DNA of 60,327 bases, filler included, from Aduncisulcus paluster (lineage: Eukaryota): the NCBI GenBank assembly GCA_024181965.1. It is 5 parts of 5 records of this genome, joined end to end, with 100 filler letters (N's around TTAATTAATTAA, not from the genome) between each part and the next. Parts side by side here need not be neighbours in the genome. Positions count along the whole stretch, not along the records: positions 42,926 to 52,186 come from BQXS01010838.1; 4 more parts are not named here. One strand, written 5' to 3'. The notes below the pieces were generated by a model. The model was given only the letters and a program-made list of their open reading frames with translations. It made no database searches and was not told the origin of the DNA. Position 1 is the stretch's first letter. The number at the start of each line of letters is the position of its first letter. Positions 6,001 to 56,181 of the stretch are shown piece by piece. Position numbers and translations under genes: made by a program.

Positions 6001-9000
6001 AATGTGGGAGTCTTGCTGGACCATGTCCCTCTTTCATTCTGGCGAAAATCTCTCTAATAATAGAAATATAGAGCAATATAGTGTGCAAATAAGTAGGAAC
6101 TGAAGTCGAAAGTGATGAATTCGTAACATTAGCTCGACGTTTGTGTTTTCGATGTGACAACGCGATATCTAACATTTTCTTCTTTTGATTCTCACGACGG
6201 CGTTTGGAGGTCCCATTTTTAATTTTCATTTTAAAATTCCTCCAAGGTGACCTCGGTTCTGTGACAACTTTTGCAACTCCATGTTTTGTTGGACCCACTC
6301 CACCAAGACCCAAATCCTGGCTGAAACCGCCAGATCCAGAGCGTCGATGATGGTGACGTTTGTGTGATTTTCTACCTTGTGCTTGCTTCATTGATCTTGG
6401 ACTTTTGGGTTCGCGGTGCTTTCCATGATAAGGATGTTGCTGAGGAGAGCTATGTGAATAGTCAGCAGAGCTAAACCCATTTGATGAGGCACTCCCAGTT
6501 GTAACAGATGTCACATTGGGCAATGAAGGAGACGAGTAACGCTGAGGGGATGAACTGATACTGGACTGAAGTTTGCTTGTTTGTTCCTGAATAAATTGTT
6601 TCCTGCCTCCTCTTACCACATCAGTTTTAGCCGGTCTCCTACCTTGTATATCTTCCGGTTCCTGCCGGTGATCGTGATGATGAGAGTGGTGATGTTTGGA
6701 AGTAGAAGCATCGACAGCGTCAATTCCATCTCTCCTGACAATCGGTGGGGAAGAAGAAGAGGAAGAGGAAGAAATTGTTGATGAAGGAGCAAGTAAAGAA
6801 GATGCCATGGAATTTGCATATCCACGATGAGTCTTGTGATTAGCAACACCATGTGCCACTCCAGCACTATGAACCCCTACTACTGATGAAGTTGCAGCAT
6901 GCTCCTGATGGGCAGAAGACGACGCTTTATCTCCTGTTGAAGAGGGTGAAAGAAGATGGTGTTGTCCACCTTGAGTTTGAGCTTGTCCACCTTGAGCTTG
7001 AGCTTGTCCACCTTGAGCTTGAGCTTGAGGAGGCTTTGGAGATGTGGTGGATCGATAACTCGACCTACTGTCCGTGTCAGCATTTCTAGAAGAATGAGAG
7101 TATTCGCTACTGGTTAGAGACATACTGGGCGATCTACATTTATAATTGAGGGATTTCTCGCCGATCATTTCATCAGATCCTGAAGGAGACTCTGACCGAC
7201 TCAAATGGTCCAGTTCACTCACATAGGATGTAAATGACTTGATTTGATATGCCTTTTTCTTTGGAGACTCAAACACAGCATGTGGATTCTCTTCGTCAGG
7301 GGCATCGATGGTATCATCAATAGTACCATCACTTCGAATGGAACTCATAGCTCTCAGAGAAGGAATCAGCACCGATTGATTAGTATTATTACTAATAGGA
7401 TGTATTGATGGTATGAACTGACAGGCTCCATCATCTTGAACCCCGAGAATGATCTCTTCGTCAGACACATCAGAAGTTCGGCTATCACGTCGATATATCC
7501 GATCTATATGAATATGCTGACTGACTGACACTTCACCATCTTTATGATCTTGATGTTGCTGTAGTCCAGTTGGGCTACCATTACCTTGATGCTCGCTTGT
7601 TTGTCCTTGACTTAGAGCTTGTACTTGACCCATTGCACCTTTCATGCAACTCAGAGCCTTCGATGAGGATGAGGATGAACCTTTTGAAGAAGAAGAAGAT
7701 ATATTTTTTGATGAAGAAGATACGCTGCTCATTCCCACTACCTGCCCTGGATGTCCAGTCTTTAACATTGAACATACGGGTTGTCCAGCTCCAACGAGGA
7801 GAGAAGAGGAAGAAGAAGAGGTCGTGGTTGCAAGTAAATGTGAACAATCAAGTCTTTGATGCTGTTGAGCTTGCTGAGTTCTTGAGATAAACTCATGAAT
7901 AGGACGGTCACCATGAGCATGACTTCTATGGTCACTACTGTTTGGGCAGTTTATATTGTGGATATTAGAACATGAACGAGCACCCAGCAATGACGAAAGA
8001 CCACCAATGCTGGGTGCACCGCTGTGGTGGCCAAGAGTTGCCGCACCACCAGCAAAACCATATGAAGAAGGATGCTGGCATTGTTGCTCGTGACGTAATT
8101 GATAATCAAAATACTCTCTTCCATGCTTGCTGAGCCATTGTTTCTCAAGAGTTATCCGTTGAACTTCGGGGAAAACATAAGGTTTTAACAAATCTATGAG
8201 TTTCTTCATTCTTTTTTCCCTCAAAAGCATAGCAAGACCTCCGTAAAGTCGAACAGAGCGCACCAATGGGGTTTTATAAGACGTGTACAAAAAAGAGAGG
8301 AAAGAACATATAAAGGTCATACCAAGAGATATTCCAGTTATCCAATAACTTTCTTGTGGAGACAGAGAACTATCCAGATCCCTGAGGAAACCAAACGTTG
8401 TGGGGCGTACTGTAATAGGAGAAGAGGAGGAGGAAAGGTGGTGGTAAGGTGATGTCTGATTCTGTTGTTGTGTTGACGTGACAGAGATCATAGCTTCATC
8501 GTTATTGCTGTTTTTGTTGCAGTTATTGTTGTTACAAATGGTACAAGGATATGACGATTTATCGTTGGTATTATTTGCTAGTTTCTCAGACTGTCTATAT
8601 TTAGATTTAAGTTTATGAGAATGATAATATGTTTTGGTGATAGCAGGTTTGGGTTGTATTATACTAGACTCCTCTTTCATGACTGCACTTGATATTGATT
8701 GAGAACCAGAGTCAGAAGGTGAAGAAATAACCATTAAAAGAGAATCAGAATCCACAGGATGAGAGTGTGTTGTTGTTCTGCTTCTAGTAAATTCTTCTCC
8801 TCTTTCTCCTCTTTCTTCTCTTTCTTCTCTTTCTTCTCTTTCTTCTGTGGCAATCTGTATTGGTCCAAATGAAACATTATCTTTGTTTCTATTGTTATTA
8901 TGGTCATTATTATACATGTTGGTGTCATTTATATCATCTTTATATCNNNNNNNNNNNNNNNNNNNNATAACCATTAAAAGAGAATCAGAATCCACAGGAT

Positions 9001-21954: not shown

Positions 21955-22054
21955 NNNNNNNNNNNNNNNNNNNNNNNNNNNNNNNNNNNNNNNNNNNNTT
22001 AATTAATTAANNNNNNNNNNNNNNNNNNNNNNNNNNNNNNNNNNNNNNNNNNNN
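21955..22054. other. Artificial contig spacer N44-TTAATTAATTAA-N44
   Basis: 100 nt; six-frame stop linker at 21999-22010. Confidence 0.97.
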
Positions 22055-29026: not shown

Positions 29027-30613
29027 ATGAATCTCTCAGCATCACAAGGAATTGGCGATGATTTCCTTCCTATGGCTTTAATGGCTATGGAAGAAGAGGG
29101 AAAGAAGGCCAAAGATCGTGTTGATGAAATGGAAAAAAAGCTCTCCAAATCTCAAGGAGAAATAGACTCTCAAAGGAGAGAAATATTGAAATTAAGGAAA
29201 GAATTAGTTGACATTGAAGAAAAAAAGGCAGCTGGTGAAATTAAATATCGAAGGTTGGAAAAACGAGTTGAAGAGGAAGCTAGAGAAAAAATGAGATATC
29301 ATCGAATGTATGAAGAAAGTCAAAGGAAGTTTACTGCCGCAAATCAAGAAATATTGAAGCGAAAACGGAAATATCGTGACCTTTACAAACGATGTGATGA
29401 TTTACAGTTATTATCAAGAAATTTATCCACTGAAAAGGAAGATATTATTATAAAATTTAACAAACAGAGTGAATCTTGTTCTATGTGGAAACAACGAGCT
29501 GAAGAAAGGCAGAGCGAACTCGAGCGTCTTCAACTTCGATATAAAGGTGATATTGAACATCAAATGGAAGAATTTGAGAAAGAACGAGAAGATATTAATT
29601 GCATATTACAAAATTATCAGGTAGAGAATGCCGATTTAAAGAAATCATATGGCGAACAAATTGAAAGTGCCATTGCGTGGAAAAGAGAATTTGAAGTTGC
29701 TTCAGCTGAATTAAAACAATATAAAATACGATCTAAACAACGTGTTGAACAGGTTAAAGAGAAATATTCAACCAAATTAAGTGAAATGGCTACAGAGAAT
29801 ACACATCTCCACGCTGTGATTGCTAAATGTGTTTCGCGGCTCAAAGAATGTTTTGATATGCTTAGACGCACTCACGATATTCGATATAGCTTTGATTCTA
29901 TCATTTCTTCACTTCAGCCGCTTTCTTTTGACTCATATTCTTCCGGACCTTCTCTCCAGCAACCTCTGACCTCAGGATCTCCTCTTTTCCCGGCTATCTC
30001 ATTTCCTGCGCTTCCTCAACTCATTTCTCATCCTTCTTCATTGCCACAGGTNNNNNNNNNNNNNNNNNNNNCAACCAAATTAAGTGAAATGGCTACAGAG
30101 AATACACATCTCCACGCTGTGATTGCTAAATGTGTTTCGCGGCTCAAAGAATGTTTTGATATGCTTAGACGCACTCACGATATTCGATATAGCTTTGATT
30201 CTATCATTTCTTCACTTCAGCCGCTTTCTTTTGACTCATATTCTTCCGGACCTTCTCTCCAGCAACCTCTGACCTCAGGATCTCCTCTTTTCCCGGCTAT
30301 CTCATTTCCTGCGCTTCCTCAACTCATTTCTCATCCTTCTTCATTGCCACAGGTGCCTGACGTGTTCTCTGGTCTGCACGCGTGTATACAAACTCTCAAA
30401 GAAAAGGCTAGCGACTCGATGATAAAGTGGAAGAGTGAGAAAAGGGAGTGGAAAAGGGAGATTGAGAAACTAGAGGCTAAAATTAAACGCGAGGAACGGG
30501 TTTCACATGCTTCTTCTCTCTTACCCCCAAAACCTCCTTCCGCACGAACTCTCTCCAGCACTGAGAAGTTAAGATTAGCTGTGAAGGAGCTTTTAGATGC
30601 CACAAATAGGTGA
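29027..30613 (+). CDS. Coiled-coil protein (length inflated by about 101 codons through a gap-flanking duplication)
   Basis: E/K/R/Q-rich heptad-like ORF running across a 20-N gap. Confidence 0.8.
   Translation: MNLSASQGIGDDFLPMALMAMEEEGKKAKDRVDEMEKKLSKSQGEIDSQRREILKLRKELVDIEEKKAAGEIKYRRLEKRVEEEAREKMRYHRMYEESQRKFTAANQEILKRKRKYRDLYKRCDDLQLLSRNLSTEKEDIIIKFNKQSESCSMWKQRAEERQSELERLQLRYKGDIEHQMEEFEKEREDINCILQNYQVENADLKKSYGEQIESAIAWKREFEVASAELKQYKIRSKQRVEQVKEKYSTKLSEMATENTHLHAVIAKCVSRLKECFDMLRRTHDIRYSFDSIISSLQPLSFDSYSSGPSLQQPLTSGSPLFPAISFPALPQLISHPSSLPQXXXXXXXXTKLSEMATENTHLHAVIAKCVSRLKECFDMLRRTHDIRYSFDSIISSLQPLSFDSYSSGPSLQQPLTSGSPLFPAISFPALPQLISHPSSLPQVPDVFSGLHACIQTLKEKASDSMIKWKSEKREWKREIEKLEAKIKREERVSHASSLLPPKPPSARTLSSTEKLRLAVKELLDATNR
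29769..30354. other. Assembly artefact: identical 283-bp copies flanking a 20-N gap
   Basis: 29769-30051 equals 30072-30354 with N at 30052-30071. Confidence 0.85.
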
Positions 30614-32829: not shown

Positions 32830-32929
32830 NNNNNNNNNNNNNNNNNNNNNNNNNNNNNNNNNNNNNNNNNNNNTTAATTAATTAANNNNNNNNNNNNNNN
32901 NNNNNNNNNNNNNNNNNNNNNNNNNNNNN
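32830..32929. other. Artificial contig spacer N44-TTAATTAATTAA-N44
   Basis: Linker at 32874-32885. Confidence 0.97.
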
Positions 32930-39520: not shown

Positions 39521-42425
39521 TCAAAAATATCCGGGCCACAAAAATTCTTCCTCTTCCTCTTCTTCTTCCTCTTCCTCCAATATTTCCATTTCTTCCCTCC
39601 ATGATTCCTGATCATACCCTTCAAATGAAACATTACACATTTCATGATCAAATAAAGATTCCACGCCTCCACCTGTGTGTTCAACAAAATCATACACAGA
39701 CTGTCTCAAAGATCTTTCCTCATCAAATGGCATCTTAACAAGTAAATGTTGAGGAGGAGTGTATTGGATGATAGATGAGTGTTTGATGCGATAGTTGTGT
39801 TCAAAAGAAATTATAGAATTCTTTTCTTCTTCTGCTTCTTGCTTTTCCCCCATTAATGTTGATTGTTTCTTTTGAGATGAAGGTTCATCTAATATTTTAT
39901 GAGAAGGAATAGAATGAAATTTATCTTCCTCATATTCTTCATGGTCATTATTGCCATAAGACCGATCAGCGTGGGAACAACATAATTTACCACGTCGAAT
40001 AAGATGAATTTTCATTTCTTTTCCACCTTCAACAATGTTAAAATAAGAAATTTTGCTTTGTTTTGAATACACTATTGTTATAATAAATTCCATAACAGAA
40101 CACACATGTGAAGCGTATGAATATCCATCTTTCTCAGGACATAAAGATGTCTCAATTGATGGGATTAATGAGACTGGAGGAATAGAGTGGAGTAAATTGT
40201 TCGAAAGATATGAGCAAGATAGGAAAGAAGATACATTGGAAGTAAACAACTCATATTGTGAATGGCAAGGCTGAAGAGTCAGACACATCTTCATTTCTTC
40301 GTCATATTGAGGTGATAACTCAGGTATTAAATGTGAAACGGAGGAAATCATGGAGAGTAGCTTGGCCCAAAATATGATTGCCTTTGTATATATTTCTTTT
40401 ATACATACTTCATACCACTCGCCAAGAAAGTGTTTAAGATTATCATATACTTCGGCGGCATGTGATTGATCATAACACAAATTGGCCAAAAAATCTAAAA
40501 TATAGTCACGGTAATACTTAGCAAGCATATTTCCCGCAAATTCTCTCCGAATAACTTCAAGAATAGGGTGGAAGAGAGGCCAAGCTTCAGCACACACAGA
40601 AATATTGGACGTTTCGTTATCACTTGAAAGGGTGATTTGTGACAGAATATAAGCCCATTGTCCATAAAATGCACAATACTCACCATCAATATATTTGTAT
40701 ATCCTTAACCAATCTATGAGAAATGGCTTGATAAGAGTGAGAATATAAGATCGAGTGGAAGGATAGTCAGAAATACGGAAGAGAGTATCTAATAACCGAA
40801 TAATAATATATCTATCTAACTTCTCTTTGCTTCCTCTCTCAAGAATATGTTGAAGAATGAGAGAGAGCTTACAAAAGACCTGTTCTTCTTCATTTTCATA
40901 TTCAAAAAAATTAAAATAGCAAAAATTCTCACAAATTTTTAAAAAATCTCCGTCAATATATTCTTTCAAAACTTCCTCCACTCTTGATATATGGCCAATA
41001 AAGGTGTCAATGGGATCATTAAGCTCAGTAAAAGGAAGAGATACCATATCTCCAGAAAGAAGCCGATGCCCAACAAACGCATTTAAACAATGAACACAAA
41101 GAATAATCTCTCTCTTGTGCTCTTCAATTTCACTCTTCGATTGATATGCAAGGAAAACAGAAAGAATTTCCTCTCGATGTTTATGGTAGAGTTTAGAAGT
41201 CGATTCTGAGTCAGCCTTGATGATGGATTCAAACAAATTGACCCATTTCTTGAGAGAGGGATATAAATTACGAATATATTGTGTATACTCTTCAATCCAG
41301 CAATTATTATTCATACCCCATTCCATTTGGTCATCGTATTTGGGAGATAGTTGAGGAGCAATAGATGGGATAGTGGAGAATAAAGAAACGAGTTTGACCC
41401 AATTTTTGATTCCCCAATCGTTCCCTTTTTCACTTTCCTTCTTTACAACTATAAACCAACTATCAAGAAGACCATCTTTAATGGAATCATATACTTCGAT
41501 GGCTTGGGAGTGAATATAACTCAAGCTAATGAATAATTCAAAACAAGCAATGAGAGTGGAATTGTCAAATGTTATACCCTTGGAATCTGTATCTTTAATC
41601 ACATCCAAGACAGGATGGAAGACAAACCAAAGCTTTAAGGAACGGTCTTCATGAGGGTGTTCGTTATCTTCATCACAAATGATTCTCTGAAAGATAATTA
41701 TCCACTGCAAAAAGAACTTCTTGTCGGGATACCTCCTCATCCAAGGTAAGATATGAGGGCGAAGAATGGATAAAAGGGAGTCTCTAGTGGAATTATCTTT
41801 GGCAAAGGCGATATATCTACATATTTCGAGGATATCTTCGATGAATGAATTCTCAAGTTTTTGAGATATACCCAAAGTTAATAAATTGGAGAGAAAAGGA
41901 GATATTTGGGGCAAAATAGTAGAACAAAGAGATAAACTATCATATTCTGGAGCTGTTAAAACACAAATAATCCTAAACAATGACATTGTGATGGAGTTCA
42001 CGCCAGCTTCTTTTGTTCCACTTTCTTCTTCTTCTCCTTCTTTTCCCTTCTTCTTCTTTTTCTTTTGCCATTTCTCCATTCATCCTCAGAAAAGATTCAA
42101 CTTTGATCATTTGAGGCAAGAAAGGGTCAATGATCTTCTTGATGGAAGATTTATGGGGGATGACCACAATATCTTCTTCTCCATCTTCTTCTTTCGTAAC
42201 TTTATGCTTCACGAACAGGGATAAACATTCGAAACAAAGAGCGAAGAGATCTCGATTGGAAGTGATAGCAGAAGGTGTCGTGTATTCGTCAAAGATGGCC
42301 TGAAGACGTGATTGAGATTTTTCATAAAGTGGGATCAATTCAAAGGTGGTCATTTTAATAGAAACTCTCAATTGTTCAAGACATTCTTTGCTGAAAGGCT
42401 TTGTTGTTGGTTTAGAAAAAGACAT
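39521..42425 (-). CDS. Alpha-helical (ARM/HEAT-like) internally duplicated protein, interrupted by a +1 frameshift near 42045
   Basis: ORFs 41973..42425 and 39521..42079 overlap in a purine-rich E/G/K linker. The internal repeat (LCFECLSLFVKH / LCVHCLNAFVGH; WFVFHPVLDVIK / WPLFHPILEVIR) spans both ORFs. Confidence 0.75.
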
Positions 42426-42825: not shown

Positions 42826-42925
42826 NNNNNNNNNNNNNNNNNNNNNNNNNNNNNNNNNNNNNNNNNNNNTTAATTAATTAANNNNNNNNNNNNNNNNNNN
42901 NNNNNNNNNNNNNNNNNNNNNNNNN
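42826..42925. other. Artificial contig spacer N44-TTAATTAATTAA-N44
   Basis: Linker at 42870-42881. Confidence 0.97.
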
Positions 42926-42926
42926 C

Positions 42927-43046
42927 ATTGACACCATTATCCGTGAGCAATGCAAGAAGTATGGTGGCTCTGTTGGAACCATTGAAGGAAGGAAATGTGG
43001 TGTCGCTGGTGTTGAGCATGAGGAAGGTTGGGATCAGAGTCAGTGA
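42927..43046 (+). CDS. Probable 3' tail of a truncated gene
   Basis: IDTIIREQCKKYGGSVGTIEGRKCGVAGVEHEEGWDQSQ* from the contig start, with coding-like codon use. Confidence 0.45.
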   Translation: MDTIIREQCKKYGGSVGTIEGRKCGVAGVEHEEGWDQSQ

Positions 43047-43689
43047 GTGATGTGTGAAAAGATTCTGATCTTAAGATGGATGCAAGGATAGGTCATCGAA
43101 ATGTGATCCCCGTGATAAAAGAGGGTGATAATGTAAGAATTTGTGAATAAAATGAGGGTTTTCTAAAATGTCAACTTGAGACTGTGGTAGAAATATATCA
43201 TCCATATCTGATACATGGGAAAGGAGAAAAGGAGGTGATAGAGTTTAACCAGAGTTAATGACATCAATAACGACAATCATCCCCATTTCAGACATCATTA
43301 TGCTTCCAAATTATCTCATTCATGCTCAACATTTATTAAACACCAGAATCTCCTCCAATATCATCAAAATCAGGGAGAATAGTGCAAAAACATCTACAAA
43401 AAGGTAGAAATAATCATCAAACAGCCCCAATAGAACAATAATACACGATAAAACAACGAAACAATCATCATTTGAAAAGGTCAATTCTATAAATAGAAAT
43501 TCTATTTTTAGAACAACACATCAGAACTTTGACATTACGAGTCCAAATTATGGTCATGTGAATTCTGGGGGAACCGGTTTTCTCGTCTGGCACCGAAAAG
43601 TGTCATAATAATTTTCGAAAATCTAGCTTCGCAAGACTCGTAATAATGGTAAAGTTAAGCTAGATATCTCTCTATTCAGAATAATATTC

Positions 43690-46600
43690 TTATTCTTCAT
43701 CCCAAACATCATCTCCCTCTTCGCCCCAAGTGCTCCTCGATTTGTTTGGAGGCTCAATGATCCTGGCATAAGTATTTTCCTCCCCCTTTCGGACAAGGAA
43801 AACACACAAATTAATGAGAACCTTGGGAGACATTCTTGACAGATGGGCACGCCAAAAGTCAACGGATATCTCAATGAATTTCCCTTCTTCAGCGGCTGGA
43901 ATGACAACATCAGAGATATATCTCGCGTATTCCTCGGTCATTTCGGTCCTTTCCTTCCACCCTGGGAATCTAACCATACAATGGATAATGATCCACACCA
44001 AAGCATCGAAAATGGTCTCATTGAAATTCTCAAAGAATTTGGAATAACTGTACAACTCATGTGGAGTGGATTTGAGAAGAAGATCGCCTCCTTCCTTCTT
44101 ATATATGGTCGGGATACTAGGATCGGAAACACCAGAAGTATCTTTGTCATCGATGATATTAAACTGTTTCTTCTCGATGCAGTCCTTGATTGCCGCTTGT
44201 ATAAGACTTCGGTTCACCTTATTTTCCGAGTACCAGGATCTTTCCTTGTTCATGCAATAAACAACAATGCATCTCGCGGCATGTTCCAGAGTAGTCTGGT
44301 GGTCCAAGGATTGAGAGATCATCTCAGAGTTGATCACATCAGTGCCAGAGATTTGAATAATAAAGGCTTTCCCAAGCTGCATAATAGATTTGGCACATAA
44401 CACGTAAAGTGGATATTTCAGCATGGTTTCCTTCATTCGTTTATCAATCTCTCTCTCAAACTCTGGGGCAAAGTAATCCAGTGTAAACTTGGCACAGTCA
44501 GCGCCATCAATGGACAACGGGGAGTATATATTACGGATACGTTTCTCATGTTCGGGTGAGAAACTTTTAGGGTCAAGCGTAGCAGGTTTTGAACTATATT
44601 CAACGGACAATTCCCCATACGCACATATATCATGAATGTGAGCGAGAGAAAAGAAACCGAGAATATCCATAGGTGTGAATCTTCGAATAAGATACTCGTC
44701 AAGCTCATCCACTTGGTCAATGTCAACAATTTCACGCACATAAGCTGTAGGCATCAATGAGAACGAGGAATCTACATTGGGAAGAAGATTTCCAACCCAA
44801 ACACTCTTGGATATCGGTCTGACAGATCCACAGCTCGTGAATCTACTCATCAAGAAGCTTGTTATTGCGGAGGCATTACTCGTGAAGGAGACGGAGGCAA
44901 CATCAGTAGAACTGGGAGTAACTTCAACTCTGACAAGCGAAAGCAAGGAGGACATACATTTGCTCGGGAATTCAGCAAGATCATGTGGATGGATTACACA
45001 CATGAGATTATTCGGGGATTTAGCAGATACAGCAACTTCCACTAATCCCTTTGTGCTGGATGAGGAATGGAATTTCTCAACAATAGAGTTATGCTTCGAG
45101 ACAGCCTCCATTGTCTTGGAAATAAATCTGTTTTCTACACGCAGCAATTGATGGACATCCATGTCTCTGAAATTCCTGGGGATTCTAGGTTTAAGATCAT
45201 CAATCTCGCGAGAAATAGGCATCTTATCATGACCCTTTCCTTTGCAATCAATAGCAATCTCCAACCACTTGGCCATTGGGAATGCACACATTGAATGCAT
45301 GTAGGTCTTCACTAACTTTTCATGAGACCTTGAGAGTGAAGACACAAGGGATTCCTCAATGGATTTATGAGAATCTTGATCAGAGGCTGTGATTCTCGGA
45401 GAAAGACCATAAAACCAGTACAATACTTTAATATCTTCACTTGAAAAGCGGGGAAGAATCTCAAGATCATACACAGCCTGTTTAACTTTGTTCGTATGAT
45501 GTTCGCCTGGGAGTCCATCATTATGAGCAAATTGAACGGCTGCCACTTGTATAATTTTATCAAGATGGTTCACTTCTTCTGGATTGGAGCGTTTTCTGAT
45601 TAATTCAGCGATCTTTCTCCTCAAATCCCCATGGTCAACCACCATATCTGTTTTTTGAGCCTTCCACCACCGACAACCATATGAAATACTGCACATAGCT
45701 TCTAAAACTGAGCCAGAAATAGATGAATCTGTGGCAAGACTTGCGTTAGCAACAGAAATGCACAATAGTCGTCCACGGGCAAACAACACTCTACCGAGAC
45801 ATTCCTTAACAATTTCAGAGAGATAAGGATAAAGAATCTTTTTCAGCCCTGCAAGCGAACGTACAATTTTCTTCAAGAAGATCGAAAAGAACAATAATTC
45901 ATTCTCCGTATTCTCAACTTTCAATAACCTAATTAACCAAGGATTTAGTAATTGTGTCACAGAGAAACGATCCACATCAACCTCCCGTCCGAATGCATCA
46001 AAATTCTTCTGGAACAAATATGAAACACGAGACTTGATAATTTTGGTTTTCTGTGGGCAATCAGGCAATACAATATTGAATTCACAAAGAGCTTCGACGA
46101 TTATTGGATATATCCACTGAATGAAATACAAGGCATAATTCAATGTCTGACGCATATCGTTTTTAACCAATCTTGTTGCCAAGGAAGAAAAGGCTTTCCA
46201 GATATCTGTTCGACCTGATCTAGAACCATGAGGCATTTTCTTGGAAGTTTCAGTCACAGATTTAATATAATATTTGCAAAGTTCGCCCACAAATGGAACA
46301 TTTTTGTTATTTAGTATTTGACAAAGGTAACTTTGAAGTTGGAGTTTGTTATACATGAAAATATCATCAAATGAAGAAGTAACATCCTTGAGTTTTGACC
46401 AAACTCCAGCAAAACACACAGGAGAACCATCAGTGTGACAGATAAGTTTTTCAAATTCTAAGATATTTGCAGACCGACACTGAATGAAAAATCTGACAAC
46501 ATCCAAGAAATTTTGAGAACGAAGGAAAGCAAATGAGGTCACATCGACCGTTTGATAGAGTTTCTTGGCCCAAATCAACATAGTCATAAGAACGTGATCA

Positions 46601-49600
46601 CTCTCAGCAGTGAGTTTGGACCCACTTAAGCGGCGACACAGGAAATTTCCATCTGAAGTTTCAGAGATGCATACTTTAACCAAATATTTCTCAAATGCCT
46701 CAAGACTCACACGAACACGATCGAGGACTTTTTTGGTGGTGAAAACAGGGTCTTCTTCAAACCTTGCAAGAATCCATTGGTCGAGAGTCTTTCCCTCTAG
46801 ATCAAATCCGACAGCAGGAGAAATATAATCCATGATGAATCTTCTCTTGATAAGCATTTCAGGACACTGGATTGAGAATGTATCGAGAGCAAAACACTCC
46901 AACAATCCTTTGGAATCTAGAGTCTTCACAAATTCATCGGCAGAGGCCTGCAACTTATCTTGACGGAGTGAGAGGAGTTGCTGTTGAGGCGAGTTGAAGT
47001 TAGAACATTGGATATACATGGACATAAATTCCTTGTGAACGTCACCAGCATATATAGAACTGCATATATCACTGGCCAGACCCTGACACCAAGTAGAAAC
47101 ATTGGCAAGAACCACATTTATCGTGGGGCAGTTATCTTTCCTGTTTAAGATAGCACTAAGCAATTTAGATGAAGAATGGTCGCCATGATGCCCATATCTC
47201 ACGTATTTTGTGAATGCTCTTCTAAATAATATCAATTTTCTTGCATTCTCTTGGTCATCAACAAAGATATCTTGCTGAACAGAGCTCAACACAGTGGGAT
47301 AAGAATCCTGATTCAAAGGCAAAGTGTATTGACTGAGTAAAAGATCAAGATTAATCAATTCTGGAAGTCTAATGATGAAAACAATGGATTTGTGCTGTTT
47401 TTGCAGAGACTCTTGGAATTTGAAAGAATTGGCAGTGTTAAAGAGAGAGTGAAGGTGATACGGCTGTTCAAACACAAAAATCAAACATCTCTTTTCATCA
47501 TTTTCGGGAATTAAATCATCATTACACAAGAAAGATTCAAGGATCTGAACATATTTCCTCTTGCTATCGACTTCACTTCCCTTTCCAATCATATAAATGT
47601 CATATGGTTCTTCTCGATGGAAGTATTTCTCCTTGAACTGGGAAATAGGTTGCTGGACATACTTTATATATGTTCTACAGTCTTTTTCTTCCACATTAGG
47701 GGAGGATAGATGCCGAATAAATGACTCGAAGGAGTATACATTCTCACCGTAGAACCTTCCCAAAATAGAATCGGAATCAGAAAAAGACGTATCATGAGGA
47801 TCTGGTGAGGAAACAGAAGTACCGAACATCATTTCAGAGGACCCACATTCGTGAAGGATAGGGTTAATAAGACCTGCAATGAACATGAAGCTGGCTGCAG
47901 AGAGACTTGCTTCATCAGGATTCAGAATAACGCTTGACCCATCGTGTTGTCCACAGTAATTTCTGGAGGCATGGACAATACGTCTGGCGGTGTAGTGAAC
48001 TCCTTTGGAGAAGTTTAAGCAAGGGAATAACACACGACATGTGGCCTCTTCGGATGTCGTCGAAGCAAGACCATTACCTCTGGCACGCCTAATGAGAGCA
48101 AGCAAGACATGTTCCACTCTTGTGACGACAAGTTCACACTCGGGAGTGGCATCGACAAGGGATGGCATCACAACAACCTGCATTCTGGATACGAGAGCAG
48201 TGTCAGGGACTTGGTTTTGATCAATTGAGTGGAATCTTTGGATATCCATGAAGACAATTGCTCTGAAGAACAAAGAAACATCCATTGTTGTGACCTTATA
48301 TCCTTCAGGATCAGCAATTCTGACTTGTCTCTGTGATCCCTTTGAAGATATGAAATTGTAGTTAAATAGTGAATACAAGGCTGGATAGACCTTGTCCATT
48401 CCATACATGCACAGCACACCTCTATTTCTCATGTTATGAAGGATATCTCCAAGGACACGAATGAAATAACCCCTTTCCATATCCTTAGGAAGGTAACTCC
48501 TGAAGAGTTTGGGGAGATTACCCTGTTCAAATACAGATCCGATCCAATTATCCTCGGCTTCATCAATATCCTCACTTGAGTAGTGGTTAACCAAATGATG
48601 GAGAATTCTGGAGACCGTCTGGAATATCTCATGGGGATCACCAACAACAAGCAACATTCGAGTGTCATTTGATAAGTTCTGGGTGATAAGGGCCTCAGAT
48701 GTAGCACTCACAGTTGGAGGATGACCGTCAAGCATCTCAGAAAGTACTGCTTTGACACGGGTGACACCATTTCCTGGGATAAGCCCAACAACTCCAACAT
48801 AATTGGCAATGGCAGCTCCATAAAAGGCTTTTGGGGGGTCAACTCCTCTAAATATGGACCAAGCAAGGTCACGAATGAAGAAATAAAAGTTTCTTAAGGT
48901 CTGAACTTGTCTTCTTCTGATGTCATGAGGATGAATCTCACCAAGATGGGTTAACAGCTTTCTTCTAATTTCATCTTCAATAATAACCTTCACTTTCGTG
49001 TACAACTCAGCGCCAAACTCGATGAATCTCTCTGCTCTGGTGAAGTATGCAGCAATATGAGCAGGATTCTTGACATGAATGCAAGAAGCAAGCACTTCTT
49101 TGTAGAATAAACATCCAGTTACCTTAAGTTCCTCAGAACTGGGGTCAATGGCCTGAACAACGAAAGCTCTTGAACATTTCCCTGGATCTGGAAGGTAATT
49201 TGATAGAGCAATGAAAGTGACTCGATCATCTGGATTGCTGGGCTCAAGCAACTGATGCAAGATCTTCAAGACATTCTTATTGTTTTGAATAGCTAGTCCA
49301 AGTTCCTCAAAGAAGGCAATTGGAATGATTCGGAAGTCGTTTTTTTGTTTCGAGCGGGCAAAAATGGAATGATATTTCTCCAATACACTAGTAAACAGAT
49401 TAAGCACACCCTTTGAAGTCGAGGCTGTTGATCCCTGATATTCGTGAGTAATAACACGAATACCCTTCATAAGAGGATGGTCTATTCCCGATCCTGTTCC
49501 AAAATCTAGAGGGATAACAACAATATTGTAAGCAAGCGTCTTGGAGGTTCCAGGTGCTCCGATCAAAAATGCTGCTCTTTGTAGAACAATTGCGAGAGAG

Positions 49601-52186
49601 ATCAAGTAAATGTTTAAGCACAAAGACTCAGTAAGAACAATAGCATTGCTGTTACGCTTAGTGTCCCCACATGTTTTCTTGTAGGAGGAATACACGGAAG
49701 AAGCAAAGGTTCGAAGGATGTGGATAATAATCTCTTTCAACATGGCAGAGTTGATTATTGCATGAGCTTGAACGCCATGTTCTTGGTGAGAAAATGGGGA
49801 AGAATTGAAATGAGAACCATCCGGAATGGTGGAATCTCTCTCCATTCTTGAAACAAGTCGGGAAGCTTCGGAGGCAAATGGAATATCATTCTGGTTAAAG
49901 ACAGTGCAACAATCATCCAAAAGATCTTTTCTAGCATCAGGTGAACCACATCTACCATAGAAAGTGACGTACATTCCTACCAAAATACCCCGGAGAAACT
50001 CTGATTTCCAAGCAGATGACGGTTTGAATTTAATGGATTTTATCGACTTATCAATGGAAATACCAGATTGAGAAACAGAAGGATGCACTGAATCTTCACC
50101 AACTCCACACAAGACTCCATGCTGGCGGTGAGTATCGTGAGAGATCTCAAAGCATGAATGGTCAACAGCGTGTAGAGCATGTAATATAGCAACGATACTA
50201 AACCTATCGGCCTCACGATATGAAGCAAAGAAGCATCGTTTCTCAAGAACAGAAAGGATATGGCTTGCAAAAGTAATAATATCATATATAGATTGAATAT
50301 CTACCATTGTATTTGACATGAAATCAACGGCAAAATCGTTTCCTATTCCTTGAACATTGCCGGAATACCTTGACAAGAGTGCAGCCGTGGTTTGAACATT
50401 ATTTTTATGGGCCACACAAGCCAAGGAGAATTTGATATGAGAAATAACAATTCTCTCCAATATGCGTCTATTTTCCTCATCTTTACCTTGAGCCTTGAGT
50501 CCTTGCCAGAACAATACGAAGCATCGGAGAGATTCTGGAGTCGGATACACACGATATGAAACATGACTGAACGGATCAATTCCAATGTCCTTGTCGATGA
50601 CCTGAGATGTTTGCTGTTCTTCCTCCTTGGAACGTTGTCTGTATGGATTACAAGCTGCGAAGAAACGAAGATGTTGAGCAATGCTCTTGGATGAATTGAA
50701 CGTTGGGTAGAGAGAGAAGAAAATATCATCAAGAGATTGCCCACGAATTGTTTTCTTCGTCATAATCTCAGCCAATAGTTCACAGGATTCACAAGTATTC
50801 AATTCATCAAAGAAAATAGCCGCACATGAGCCGAAAGCATATTCTTTCCACACTTGATTTTGGATAGACCCAGGACTGACATTGAGAATCTCAGTATATA
50901 ACTTGTACATAACATTCATCATGAACTCGATAATAACCTTCTCATTTGTAGATCCATTGCATCCCAACTCAAACAAATACTTACCACTCACACAATTAGA
51001 AGCAGCACGAATAAGAAGAGTCTTTCCAGTTCCACTGTCTCCAATAAGGCAGAGAGGCTTATCGAGCTCATATGTCCGTAAGATAGCAAATAGAAGGTGA
51101 GCGTTGTGAGGAGTCAAAATAAGACCTCGGGGTTTCTGCAAAACATACTTCTTAATGTCAAATTCTTTATGGTGAGATAAAGCCAAACGTCTGAGATCGT
51201 CATCACAGGGCAGGAATTCAGAGGAAACACTATCGGTGAGAAGAAGAAGAAGAAGAAGAGGAAGATGATGAATGGGATGGAGTTGCTGGTTTGGGAGGTT
51301 TGGGAATCTCAACATTGTTCATCCAAGAATGTTGGACATAACTCCACAGAGCATTACTTTCACTTACAATGGTTCTATCTGATAAGAACTTTGTAATTCT
51401 TTCACGGAGAGTCAATACAACAGGACCATTCTTTCTTACAGGTTGTGGTTCGTCATCTTCATCCTCAGAGATACAGATATCATCATATTCTTCACTGTCT
51501 CTCAGTAAATGATCTCTCTCCTTCTTCCTCTCTTTTCTTCTCCCTTCTTCTCTTCGATGGATAAGACTATGACGTGCTTCACCAATAAAACTCACAACAT
51601 CACACACGAGTTGCCATGCTGTTGCGAATTGTTCCGGAAGACAATCTCCTTCGTGAATTATGATAGGCATATCCGATTCTCGCGCTTTCTTTGCAATATC
51701 AGTATCAGGGTATGCAAGAGCACATATTCTCATAGATATATGACCCACACTACGCTTAGATACTTCTCCAATCACCTCTTCACCTTTGAGACCTATAAAG
51801 AAGCTCTCACAAGTCCTGATATCTTTCAGAAGATCTCTTGGAGATCCACCCCATACACTCATTACAGAATCAAACAGCGCATAAATATCGTGTGCAAGCA
51901 CTCCAATGATGTTATCTTCGAGACCAGGAATAGAAAAAGCCGTCTTCTTTTCCTGCGCAATATCAACCAAGAATAACTGAACAATTGGATGGACTGCATA
52001 GTTTTGTTGAATAAAAGGATTATCATTTGGAGAGGGAACATAACGTTGAGTCCATGTGATAGCGTTCTCAAGTTCAGAAACAGAACCATTGGATATGGAA
52101 GAGGTAGAAAGGAATGCCATTTTGCTGATGTGGCACATTCTCACAATATCATGGGATAAAGTTGGGAAAACGTGATAATTTGCAGC
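43690..52186 (-). CDS. RNF213/mysterin-like giant tandem AAA+ ATPase, 5'-truncated, with a +1 frameshift in a (TCT)n run near 51240
   Basis: Ordered motifs LIGDSGTGKT, IFFDELNT, FFAACNPYR, YRVYPTPESL, LIGAPGTSKT, YQGSTASTSKGV, FFEELGLA, LKILHQLLE, FIALSNYLPDPGKCSR, LRNFYFFIR and LYSLFNYNF match the RNF213 AAA core as recalled. The upstream ORF is open to the contig end at 52186. Confidence 0.85.
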
Positions 52187-52286
52187 NNNNNNNNNNNNNN
52201 NNNNNNNNNNNNNNNNNNNNNNNNNNNNNNTTAATTAATTAANNNNNNNNNNNNNNNNNNNNNNNNNNNNNNNNNNNNNNNNNNNN
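52187..52286. other. Artificial contig spacer N44-TTAATTAATTAA-N44
   Basis: Linker at 52231-52242. Confidence 0.97.
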
Positions 52287-52898: not shown

Positions 52899-55067
52899 CT
52901 ATTCATTGGCTCTTGTGGCAGCCATAACGTGGGCGTTAATGTAATATTCGAACAAATGCTTCCAGTCGAGACCCTTTCCAGCCTTTTCGATCCTATTTCT
53001 GAGAGCAACACGATCACGACGATTAAGTCTTGAGAATTCAAGCATCACCTCACACAGACGTCGGCAAGACTCATCTGGAGCTATCAGTCTCCGGTCAAGC
53101 ACATAGATTCCGTCGAATCCGCATCCACTTCCCTTCTTCCACATGTTGCTCCTTCCTTTGTCACCACTTTGAAGGAGGGCTTTGAATTTCTTGGCAGTTA
53201 AAGCAGGAGAAGATGTTTCTTGGATCTTCACACGTCTCTTCACTGCACCAAATCCCTGCACAGCGGCAGCTGCGTGAGCAAGAACATCGTCACTCGCTGA
53301 TTTCGCTCCGAGTGGAGAGCCAGCCCTTCGAGGAGATCCCATTATCGAAGGAGGCATTGATTGATAAATGAATGAAGTTTTCCTAGAGCTTTCAATAAAG
53401 TTTCCAAATCCACTAACGTTTGTCGTGATGGCTGCCACACCATTGATCATACACTCGGCAGGAGTCAGTCCGAATGGTTCATAATACGATGGGAACACAC
53501 CAAGATGACATCCACGAACAAAGTCCATATAATCCATACCAAACAGAGGAGATGTGGCAGTAATGAATTGAGGATGCCACACGATCTTAACACGATCCTC
53601 GGGCCTATTGAAGAGATTACAATCACGGATCTTAACGATAATCGGGTCAACTTCAGTCTCGGGGCACAGTTTGTGAGTTACAACAGAAGGGAATGAATCC
53701 CTGGGATATCTCGTGAGCTGAGCGGCAAAGCGTTTCAACATGACCTCATCTTTCTTCTCCAAAAGAGATGATGGATCAACAGCACCGTGGCGAGTGATCA
53801 TCTCAACAATCTTCTCTCCAATATTGGAGGCAATTGTACGAGTCAACCTTTGCAGATCTTTGTGCATGGCTACACCTTCCAACGAATCGGGAAGGAATCC
53901 TTGGTGCTTGGCAGGCATAATCACAAATGCCACAATGGTCATATCACTCTTGGCTTCTTTCAATTTCCAATTCAACTGTGCCAAAGCTTCAATGAACACA
54001 TCAGCACCTTTGTTTAAATACTCATTACGACCTGAAATGAAGAAAAATAGTGTTTTATCCATGTCCATTTCGGCCAAAGCACCATGGAAATGTCCACGAA
54101 CGAAATCACGAATCTTCTCTCTTTGCACAACGTGAAGATGGTGTAAGGACTGAAGATCGACAGTGCTTGTGTCTAAACCGTTGTATGTGATCACATCAGG
54201 CTCTCTTCCGTGAATACATTTGCTTTCATACCCAGTGATATCACTCACAGCAGTAAACACATCGCATACTTTCGCACTCCATTTTTCGACGGCATGTTCA
54301 ACCCAAATCCCTCGTTTTTTAGCCTCTGCGTCGACATCAATGTCACGGAGACTCCCATAAACATCAAGTTTCCCAGCGGCAAGATGCCTACCAAGAATAG
54401 TGGCATGAGTTGTGAAAACTGTTCCAGGAACATATAAATATGTGTGTTTAACGGGTTTCATATCTCTTTCAAGGAAAATAAGTCCGATAGAACCAAGCCA
54501 CTCATGAAAATTCATCACGAATTGTGTGTCTCTCTGGAACCGAAGCAATTCACGCAAGAAGAAACGAACAATAACACCAAAAACAAGTGCATCCCATATG
54601 AATTTTTCATTTATCTTTCCAGGAGTTGGTTCGTTAATGGGAATACCATAATTATCGAGCAATTCCTTCCTAGATTCATGTACGTTTGACCAAAAGTCTC
54701 CTTCAAATGCTTGTTCAAAAAGCAAGGCTTTAGGATGACCATTTACCAACCATCTCCCCATATGAACCTTGATATTGTATTTCTTTTCGAAAGCCTGGCA
54801 AGGGGCAGCAAATTCAGGAAGAAACTCATCCTCGAATTCTCCGACAGCTTTTTCGGGAATATAAGGTCCAATAAGAGCATAATTCTCATGATAAGTGTCT
54901 GTAGTAGCCTTAGCCTTGGATTTCAGAACAGTATTGATACCACCAATTCGATTCGCAACTTCAAGGGAAATATCAAGCAAATAATACTCTTCTGGCGTTG
55001 GATCCATTTTAATAGTTTTTTGTAATGTGTTCAAAATGAAGCAATAAGCACTTTTACATTTTGACAT
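52899..55067 (-). CDS. GYS: Glycogen synthase, GT3 family (start may be ATG 55007)
   Basis: EVANRIGGINTVLKSKA, FTTHATILGR, GRNEYLNKGADVFIEAL, GCHLGVFPSYYEPFGLTPAEC and Arg cluster RRDRVALRNR. Confidence 0.96.
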   Translation of the reverse strand: MSKCKSAYCFILNTLQKTIKMDPTPEEYYLLDISLEVANRIGGINTVLKSKAKATTDTYHENYALIGPYIPEKAVGEFEDEFLPEFAAPCQAFEKKYNIKVHMGRWLVNGHPKALLFEQAFEGDFWSNVHESRKELLDNYGIPINEPTPGKINEKFIWDALVFGVIVRFFLRELLRFQRDTQFVMNFHEWLGSIGLIFLERDMKPVKHTYLYVPGTVFTTHATILGRHLAAGKLDVYGSLRDIDVDAEAKKRGIWVEHAVEKWSAKVCDVFTAVSDITGYESKCIHGREPDVITYNGLDTSTVDLQSLHHLHVVQREKIRDFVRGHFHGALAEMDMDKTLFFFISGRNEYLNKGADVFIEALAQLNWKLKEAKSDMTIVAFVIMPAKHQGFLPDSLEGVAMHKDLQRLTRTIASNIGEKIVEMITRHGAVDPSSLLEKKDEVMLKRFAAQLTRYPRDSFPSVVTHKLCPETEVDPIIVKIRDCNLFNRPEDRVKIVWHPQFITATSPLFGMDYMDFVRGCHLGVFPSYYEPFGLTPAECMINGVAAITTNVSGFGNFIESSRKTSFIYQSMPPSIMGSPRRAGSPLGAKSASDDVLAHAAAAVQGFGAVKRRVKIQETSSPALTAKKFKALLQSGDKGRSNMWKKGSGCGFDGIYVLDRRLIAPDESCRRLCEVMLEFSRLNRRDRVALRNRIEKAGKGLDWKHLFEYYINAHVMAATRANE

Positions 55068-55362: not shown

Positions 55363-56181
55363 ATGATAAACAAATATAAAGTTGCTTTTTTTGATGTTGG
55401 AAATACCCTTACTATTGGAACTGTGTGGGGTAAGATACATTCATCATTTGATACGGTTGAACACGGTTTGGAGCATCATCAGCTGTTCAAAGCGAAAAAG
55501 TTAACATATAAACAATGGGTAGAAAAGGACGCTACATTTTGGGTTGGAAAAACTCGAGCTGAAGTAATATCTGCATTACAACCAATCAAACTTGTTGATG
55601 GCGCATCTGATGCTCTTCAATTCCTTCAAAGTCAGGGCGTTTTGATTGTGTTAGTATCTGGTGGACTTTTATGTAATTGTATTGAAGTAGCCAAAGCTCT
55701 TGATATTGATCCATTTGCGATCTTCTCCAATGAACTAACGTATGAAGATGAAAAAGTAACAGGGGCTATTGGAAAGTGTTGTACAATTCACGAAACGGAT
55801 GAGTGCAAAGACGTTGATGCCCACGAAATTGAGCTAGCTAGTTCTTCTCCCTCTCCCGATCTAATATCGTCACCTCCAAAGAAGAAATTGTCTTTTGAAG
55901 AATTAAAGAAATCATTCAGTATTGATCGCATGCTAAAAGGCCTCGGAGGAATTTCGAAAGGACAGTTTGTTCACAGATTCTGCTCTGAACTTGGGTTATC
56001 AAAGGAAGATGTCATTTCAGTTGGTGATGGAGAAAATGACATACCTCTTTTTAAAGAATCAAAGCTTAGTTTTGCTGTAAATGCGAAAAATCCAAGAGTT
56101 ATCGAAGCAGCAAAATTTCATGGTGGTTATCCTGAGCTGATTTCAATTTTGAAGTCTGAATTCAAAAAAGCTGTGAAATAA
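55363..56181 (+). CDS. HAD-superfamily hydrolase, phosphoserine phosphatase (SerB)-like
   Basis: Motif I FFDVGNTL, motif II LVSGG, motif III K in SKG, motif IV VGDGENDI. Confidence 0.85.
   Translation: MINKYKVAFFDVGNTLTIGTVWGKIHSSFDTVEHGLEHHQLFKAKKLTYKQWVEKDATFWVGKTRAEVISALQPIKLVDGASDALQFLQSQGVLIVLVSGGLLCNCIEVAKALDIDPFAIFSNELTYEDEKVTGAIGKCCTIHETDECKDVDAHEIELASSSPSPDLISSPPKKKLSFEELKKSFSIDRMLKGLGGISKGQFVHRFCSELGLSKEDVISVGDGENDIPLFKESKLSFAVNAKNPRVIEAAKFHGGYPELISILKSEFKKAVK

Follow-up and report, generated by a model that had tools for sequence, protein, structure and literature searches.

A 5'-truncated gene for a putative fast-evolved RNF213-like AAA+ ATPase in Aduncisulcus paluster, with two conserved nucleotide sites and an orphan C-terminal region

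The DNA analyzed here (the window) is a stretch of 60,327 nucleotides from the assembly GCA_024181965.1 of Aduncisulcus paluster, in which contigs are chained by artificial N44-TTAATTAATTAA-N44 spacers at positions 21955-22054, 32830-32929, 42826-42925 and 52187-52286; two further N20 gaps lie inside it at 8947-8966 and 30052-30071. As the window strings short contigs together, genes on either side of a spacer are not genomic neighbors. The contig at positions 42926-52186 (BQXS01010838.1; 9,261 bp, 40.3% G+C) carries one gene only, which encodes a relative of the AAA+ protein RNF213 (mysterin), known from immunity and vascular disease in animals. The gene is located on the minus strand, is truncated at its 5' end and extends over 2,804 codons plus a TAA stop codon, counted from the contig end. 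Its features are given below; residue numbers here and throughout, unless stated otherwise, are those of the public protein P0003, in which exon 2 comprises residues 258-2788.

52187..52286, no strand: artificial spacer N44-TTAATTAATTAA-N44 at the contig end, where the gene is cut off at its 5' end
51368..52186, minus strand: exon 1, 273 codons, open to the contig end, without a family match
51286..51367, minus strand: annotated intron of 82 nt, frame-changing, with the borders GTAAGT...CAG; splicing unconfirmed
51232..51274, minus strand: TCT-rich simple repeat, translated as poly-Ser in the frame of exon 1 and as poly-Leu in that of exon 2
43693..51285, minus strand: exon 2 of the annotated model (P0003 258-2788); its translation together with exon 1 gives P0003 exactly
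48220..51126, minus strand: RNF213-homologous AAA core (P0003 311-1279) with AAA3-like and AAA4-like modules and an AAA5-like large domain, from phmmer, hhalign, AlphaFold2 (AF2) and Foldseek
51019..51042, minus strand: Walker A of the first predicted active module, GDSGTGKT (Lys345); the Lys column is invariant in 53/53 rows of the family alignment
50803..50817, minus strand: Walker B of the first predicted active module, IFFDE (Asp417, Glu418); D and E columns invariant
49537..49560, minus strand: Walker A of the second predicted active module, GAPGTSKT (Lys839); G, P, G, S and K invariant
49303..49314, minus strand: Walker B of the second predicted active module, FFEE (Glu917 replaces Asp, catalytic Glu918 retained), from the 53-row alignment
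43693..48159, minus strand: C-terminal region of ~1,490 residues, with no relative, zinc-finger pattern or confident model detected by searches, profiles and AF2
43690..43692, minus strand: stop codon TAA, end of the main frame

An earlier reading of the same DNA (the original prediction) had described a single frame of more than 2,800 codons. The length was confirmed, but the 2,804 codons belong to two frames that are joined by the annotated 82-nt intron. The main frame (43690..51318, minus strand) comprises 2,541 codons from its own ATG, a stop-free run that at 40% G+C is far beyond chance. An upstream frame on the same strand (51230..52186), which overlaps the main frame by 89 nt, reaches the contig end without a stop over 318 codons. 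When 52138..51368 is joined to 51285..43693, the translation corresponds letter for letter (100%) to P0003, a public protein of 2,788 amino acids from the 9,261-bp contig that is named 'E3 ubiquitin-protein ligase RNF213 like protein [Aduncisulcus paluster]'. An RNF213-like identity had thus already been assigned to the identical protein in the public record and is not new. What is new is a variant with an intact two-site core, no fingers in the available sequence and ~1,500 C-terminal residues without a relative.

The affiliation of the AAA core was assessed by several sequence comparisons. Pfam assigned only a generic AAA family to the first module (PF00004, 3.5e-7), with AAA_5 and AAA_7 weaker. 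A search with the first 1,000 residues against 5.8 billion proteins yielded 82 non-self matches (E 4e-26 to 6e-4, 20-33% identity), many of which carry the name RNF213 or RNF213-like, and many of which harbor precomputed RING or RZ (PF20173) domains. Comparison of residues 258-1246 (989 residues) with solved structures by phmmer recovered nine distinct RNF213 sequences at E 2e-16 to 6e-15, including those of 7oim, 7oik, 6tax, 6tay and 8s24, with the second AAA module as the best matching stretch. Midasin was found in the same search at E 1.8e-3 only, over 49 P-loop residues (57-105 of the query), and dynein was not matched. With the whole 2,542-residue frame as the phmmer query against solved structures, no RNF213 match was obtained. 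Profile comparison by hhalign gave a single collinear alignment of residues 311-1279 to each of two family profiles (probability 100% and 99.9%, E 6e-39 and 8e-38, 708 and 719 aligned columns). The first profile is headed by an unnamed relative of 4,048 amino acids (columns 1315-2067) and the second by guinea-fowl RNF213 (columns 1637-2390). This collinearity bears out the claim that the motifs of the core follow the order found in RNF213.

An AF2 model of residues 258-1457, calculated with 27 relatives in the alignment, showed three alpha/beta modules (predicted template modelling score, pTM, 0.74). It was confident from approximately residue 55 to 1040 of the model, and confidence was gone after model residue 1043. 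In a Foldseek search against the PDB, ranks 1-8 were all occupied by RNF213 (E 1.5e-30 to 3.4e-28, template modelling score ~0.5 on the query), and dynein motors came next, from 1e-15. A list obtained with VIA-align contained dynein only and was uninformative on RNF213 versus dynein, as RNF213 chains (more than 4,000 residues) are absent from it; VIA-align omitted 118 of 1,000 chains, which were longer than 3,000 or shorter than 30 residues or outside its library. Grouping of the core with midasin or dynein had been named beforehand as the outcome that would speak against the identification, and phmmer, hhalign and Foldseek all favored RNF213. Sequence comparison and model together support an AAA core of the RNF213 type and not of the midasin or dynein type.

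The four Walker motifs listed by the original prediction (GDSGTGKT, GAPGTSKT, IFFDE and FFEE) were all located. In the alignment of 53 rows, FFEE corresponds to the h-h-D-E motif of the family, in which the Glu is invariant; the preceding Asp, present in at least 90% of the rows, is replaced by Glu in the Aduncisulcus protein, which is a conservative change. All 38 of the 38 invariant columns are retained, among them K88, D160, E161, N213, R357, K582, E661, N696, R706, R798 and R876 (counted from P0003 residue 258), and the two Walker A motifs are spaced by 494 residues. As judged from the alignment, both nucleotide sites are intact and of the RNF213 type, in an AAA3-AAA4-AAA5L arrangement, and correspond to AAA3 and AAA4 of RNF213. 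According to excerpts of PMC7311170, AAA3 and AAA4 alone are competent in RNF213, AAA2 binds ATP, and the ATPase is non-processive. ATPase activity of both tandem AAA modules is described in excerpts of PMC3963067, and activation of the E3 by ATP binding to the AAA core in excerpts of PMC12075652.

The locus is covered by two read-assembly runs, X1 and X2, the latter being taken as RNA by guess only. In each run one long contig spans 43.5-51.2 kb and another one 51275-52186, and the contigs of both runs end or break at the TCT repeat (51232-51274). A joint across the intron (51286-51367) was found in neither the X1 nor the X2 contigs, the X2 contig being unspliced there. Exon 1 matched neither a Pfam family nor the RNF213 family profiles. 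Together with the dependence of the overlapping frames on an unconfirmed intron, these observations would fit an artefact of assembly or annotation, that is two genes or an erroneous junction at the TCT repeat, with the AAA protein starting at the ATG at 51315, or a decaying gene. However, both frames lie on the same strand with the upstream one open to the contig end, the intron borders are GTAAGT...CAG, and the 150-bp reads from which the assembly was built (PMC9933649) exceed the repeat in length. Moreover, the 2,541-codon frame keeps every invariant catalytic residue of the family, which argues against decay, and a start at 51315 would yield a protein without AAA1-2, unlike all relatives. 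An artefact of this kind is considered very unlikely.

The N-terminus is cut off by the contig end at the spacer 52187-52286, as had been noted originally. The two contigs that cover 51275-52186 have 3,782 and 3,800 letters, of which 912 lie within the window, and run ~2.85 kb past 52186. This indicates that the upstream part of the gene exists in the reads. The family profiles matched no other frame of the window, which indicates that none of the neighboring contigs in the window carries the missing 5' part. In the relatives the corresponding first Walker A is positioned at approximately residues 1,220-1,340, and here it is found 355 codons from the contig end; by this position ~950 further codons would fit upstream, which is suggestive only.

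RING and RZ fingers were searched for in all 2,804 available codons. Pfam detected no zinc-finger family at E<=1, RING and RZ included. A regular expression based on the RZ spacing published for human RNF213 (excerpts of PMC11549300) matched 22 relatives (23 matches, at least two of them RING-like false positives), but not the Aduncisulcus protein. A local RZ hidden Markov model (HMM) built from the fingers found in this way detected 33 of the 82 relatives at E<1e-3 and gave no match in the Aduncisulcus protein with filters off at E<=10. An expression for C3HC4 likewise matched 22 of the 82 relatives, but not the Aduncisulcus protein. Its 68 cysteines include a single CxxC, at residue 422 within the first AAA module, and no CxxC, CxC or Cys/His cluster occurs beyond residue 425. 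In the relatives, the RZ (33/82) and RING (22/82) patterns are always located C-terminal to the AAA core. As zinc fingers are missing from the very region in which those of all relatives sit, the protein probably has an output different from ubiquitin transfer by a RING or RZ finger, or one that may reside in the N-terminus beyond the contig end.

The region that follows the last recognizable AAA module comprises ~1,490-1,510 residues, slightly more than the ~1400 residues without RING or RZ that had been predicted, and the absence of both fingers from it was corroborated by Pfam, the regular expressions and the RZ HMM. A comparison of residues 1400-2788 with proteins of similar length returned the self match only, and an exhaustive phmmer search with the last 1,200 residues over 1.84 billion representative proteins found no relative. 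The Protein Atlas gave no usable match to the C-terminal 1,509 residues. The RNF213 E3 module and C-terminal domain scaffold were looked for by hhalign and hmmsearch against the family profiles, with none above 3% probability. Aligning the C-terminal 1,489 residues with the C-terminal halves of the two family profiles by the global option of hhalign resulted in short alignments only. In this comparison the real sequence scored 9.0 and 4.0, its reversed copy 13.3 and 2.9, and eight window-shuffled copies on average 3.3 and 3.7. As the real C-terminal sequence performs no better than its reversed copy, hidden homology is unsupported. When AF2 was run on the final 1,200 residues as a single sequence, it gave a mostly helical, unusable model (mean predicted local distance difference test, pLDDT, 36; pTM 0.23). 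By its sequence, the orphan C-terminus appears unusual for the family, with which the Aduncisulcus protein seems to have only the core of ~970 residues in common.

These results bear on the possibility that the protein is still a ubiquitin ligase, with the E3 either in the N-terminal part or in a hyper-diverged C-terminal module that uses a cysteine without a zinc finger. Room for the former is provided by the X1 and X2 contigs that extend beyond the contig end. For the latter, the ~1,950 residues that follow the second Walker A are of the order of length found in relatives. In addition, relatives of ~4,000 amino acids that are RING/RZ-negative in Pfam can be aligned to bird RNF213 across 3,571 columns, which is almost the full length, and retain a small Cys motif, which suggests that a finger can degenerate while the scaffold stays. 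However, the exclusively C-terminal position of the relatives' fingers, the lack of cysteine patterns after residue 425 and the failure of the real C-terminal sequence to exceed its reversed copy in profile similarity to the family all speak against a ligase, and this alternative is regarded as unlikely.

Among the database matches, the RNF213-like core is present in Amoebozoa, Heterolobosea, fungi and Rhizaria, to which the metamonad described here is added. The match between the Pelomyxa protein P0013 and solved RNF213 reaches E 1e-121. This protein, from the amoebozoan Pelomyxa schiedti, also harbors an N-terminal CBM20 starch-binding domain (residues 147-222, E 3e-6), as reported for human RNF213. 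The RZ-negative relatives of ~4,000 amino acids (P0004, P0005, P0007, P0014, P0015, P0023 and others) possess a C-x-C ... C-P-x-C motif at the RZ position, defined as the columns that the RZ finger occupies in P0011 (3100-3149). The motif is devoid of the His and of the G-G-x-x-H tail, and could represent a variant or degenerate form of the finger. A second Aduncisulcus protein was not found among the 82 matches from 5.8 billion proteins; a word-seeded search of shorter proteins, in which 8,000 candidates were scored, gave none at E<=0.001, which is not proof of absence.

The gene is interpreted, with moderate confidence, as the 3' 8.5 kb of a gene for a very fast-evolved dynein-type AAA+ ATPase of the RNF213-like branch whose output would proceed via the C-terminal region and/or the N-terminal part and not via zinc-finger ubiquitin transfer. 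By analogy with the animal enzyme, the protein would function as a slow nucleotide-dependent switch and not as an unfoldase or motor. The conformational output of the core would be read by the remainder of the giant protein, and it would be borne by the lineage-specific C-terminal region and/or the N-terminal part beyond the contig end.

Several points weigh against this interpretation. The recognizably RNF213-like portion amounts to ~35% of the known sequence, and no match was obtained for exon 1 or for the ~1,500 residues at the C-terminus. AAA1, AAA2 and AAA6, and with them a complete six-unit ring, are without support in the available sequence: three alpha/beta modules were modelled confidently, the residues after ~1300 are unrecognizable, and AAA1-2 would fall at or beyond the contig end. 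Because the AF2 model was driven by an alignment of RNF213-like proteins, its resemblance to RNF213 does not count as evidence separate from the sequence comparison. The annotated intron is plausible from its borders, but unconfirmed, and an E3 module or another effector could sit in the missing 5' part. ATPase activity, switch behavior and lack of E3 activity are predictions only. Finally, in a maximum likelihood tree (quick search, LG+G4, 53 rows, 761 columns, no outgroup) the Aduncisulcus protein forms a lone end branch of 3.5 changes per site, compared with a median of 0.24, and falls into no supported group. As the tree has no outgroup and the query is unplaced in it, an ancestral lack of fingers cannot be told from their loss.

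The original prediction had gone further and proposed an ancient RNF213-type sensor and an innate-defence system. Nothing in the data speaks for this: the contig carries a single gene, a paralogue was not found, and the tree assigns the protein to no supported group. A cell-autonomous sensor for defence in a bacterivore, composed of an RNF213-type core and a different effector, would be in line with the coating and ubiquitylation of cytosolic bacteria by animal RNF213 (excerpts of PMC11549300) and with the lifestyle of A. paluster, a free-living, microaerophilic fornicate that is cultured with food bacteria (PMC9933649). The extreme divergence is also compatible with an arms race. However, a long branch may be explained equally well by lineage-wide fast evolution or relaxed constraint, a one-gene contig provides no genomic context, and the protein searches revealed no family expansion. 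RNF213 also has non-immune functions, for example at lipid droplets (excerpts of PMC6400562), and direct evidence for a defence role is lacking. Such a sensor is considered improbable to a high degree, and by analogy an immune role is possible. A more far-reaching idea, that an old and portable two-site AAA switch was joined to an unknown effector of ~1,500 residues instead of a ligase, possibly acting against or on ingested bacteria, seems quite unlikely. If true, it would mean that evolution can separate the 'sensor/switch' of RNF213 from its 'effector'.

A member of the family with both ATPase sites but neither finger could help to separate the role of the AAA switch from that of the E3 module. 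RNF213 is described as conserved in vertebrates in excerpts of PMC3963067 and PMC7311170, and a full-text literature search found nothing on RNF213 relatives in protists, with supplementary alignments of the cited papers outside its scope. The value is limited for now by the incomplete gene, the lack of close relatives, the existing RNF213-like label and the lack of a link to defence.

The draft assembly (PMC9933649) comprises 25,863 contigs; its N50 is 4.6 kb, its G+C content 39.1% and its BUSCO score 40.4%. The 3' flank of the gene (42926-43540) showed a word depth of up to ~60,000, compared with ~1,300 over the gene, in both runs, and numerous short contigs and variant letters in both; it is probably a dispersed repeat at the contig end. 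The next contig harbors a eukaryote-type glycogen synthase (52902-55067, minus strand; PF05693, E 1e-177) and a hydrolase of the HAD family (55363-56178, plus strand; PF08282, E 5e-18), both unrelated to the RNF213-like gene. On the previous contig a frame of 852 codons (39524-42079, minus strand) matched no Pfam family at E<=0.001.

Among the known systems, midasin (Rea1/Mdn1) is likewise a giant single-chain AAA protein, and it gave the weak match over 49 residues described above; as this similarity is confined to the P-loop, membership in the midasin family was rejected. The AAA3-AAA5 region of the cytoplasmic dynein heavy chain differs from the Aduncisulcus protein in that it gave no sequence match and a Foldseek E-value 15 orders of magnitude weaker than that of RNF213, and a microtubule-binding stalk is not evident in the Aduncisulcus protein. 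The RNF213-like proteins of protists, fungi and invertebrates (Pelomyxa P0013, Naegleria P0020, Endogone P0045, P0004 and P0005) share the same AAA core and represent the best sequence matches (E 4e-26 to 1e-20), and many of them are RING/RZ-negative in Pfam, too. They align with RNF213 nearly end to end and retain either the small Cys motif or a true RZ, whereas the correspondence of the Aduncisulcus protein is restricted to the core of ~970 residues. Vertebrate RNF213 (6tax, 7oik, 8s24 and 9i1i) differs in possessing RING, RZ, the E3 module and the C-terminal domain, none of which was detected in the Aduncisulcus protein. Identity in the core is 16-26%, with several insertions in the Aduncisulcus protein, and the region corresponding to the N-terminal stalk, CBM20 and AAA1-2 of RNF213 would lie at or beyond the contig end. 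Common to both are the homologous AAA3-AAA4-AAA5L units (phmmer E 2e-16, Foldseek ranks 1-8), the tandem Walker A/B sites with the catalytic Glu in each, and family motifs such as AACNPYR, YRVxPxPxS, QGSxxSTSxG and LRxFY in the same order.

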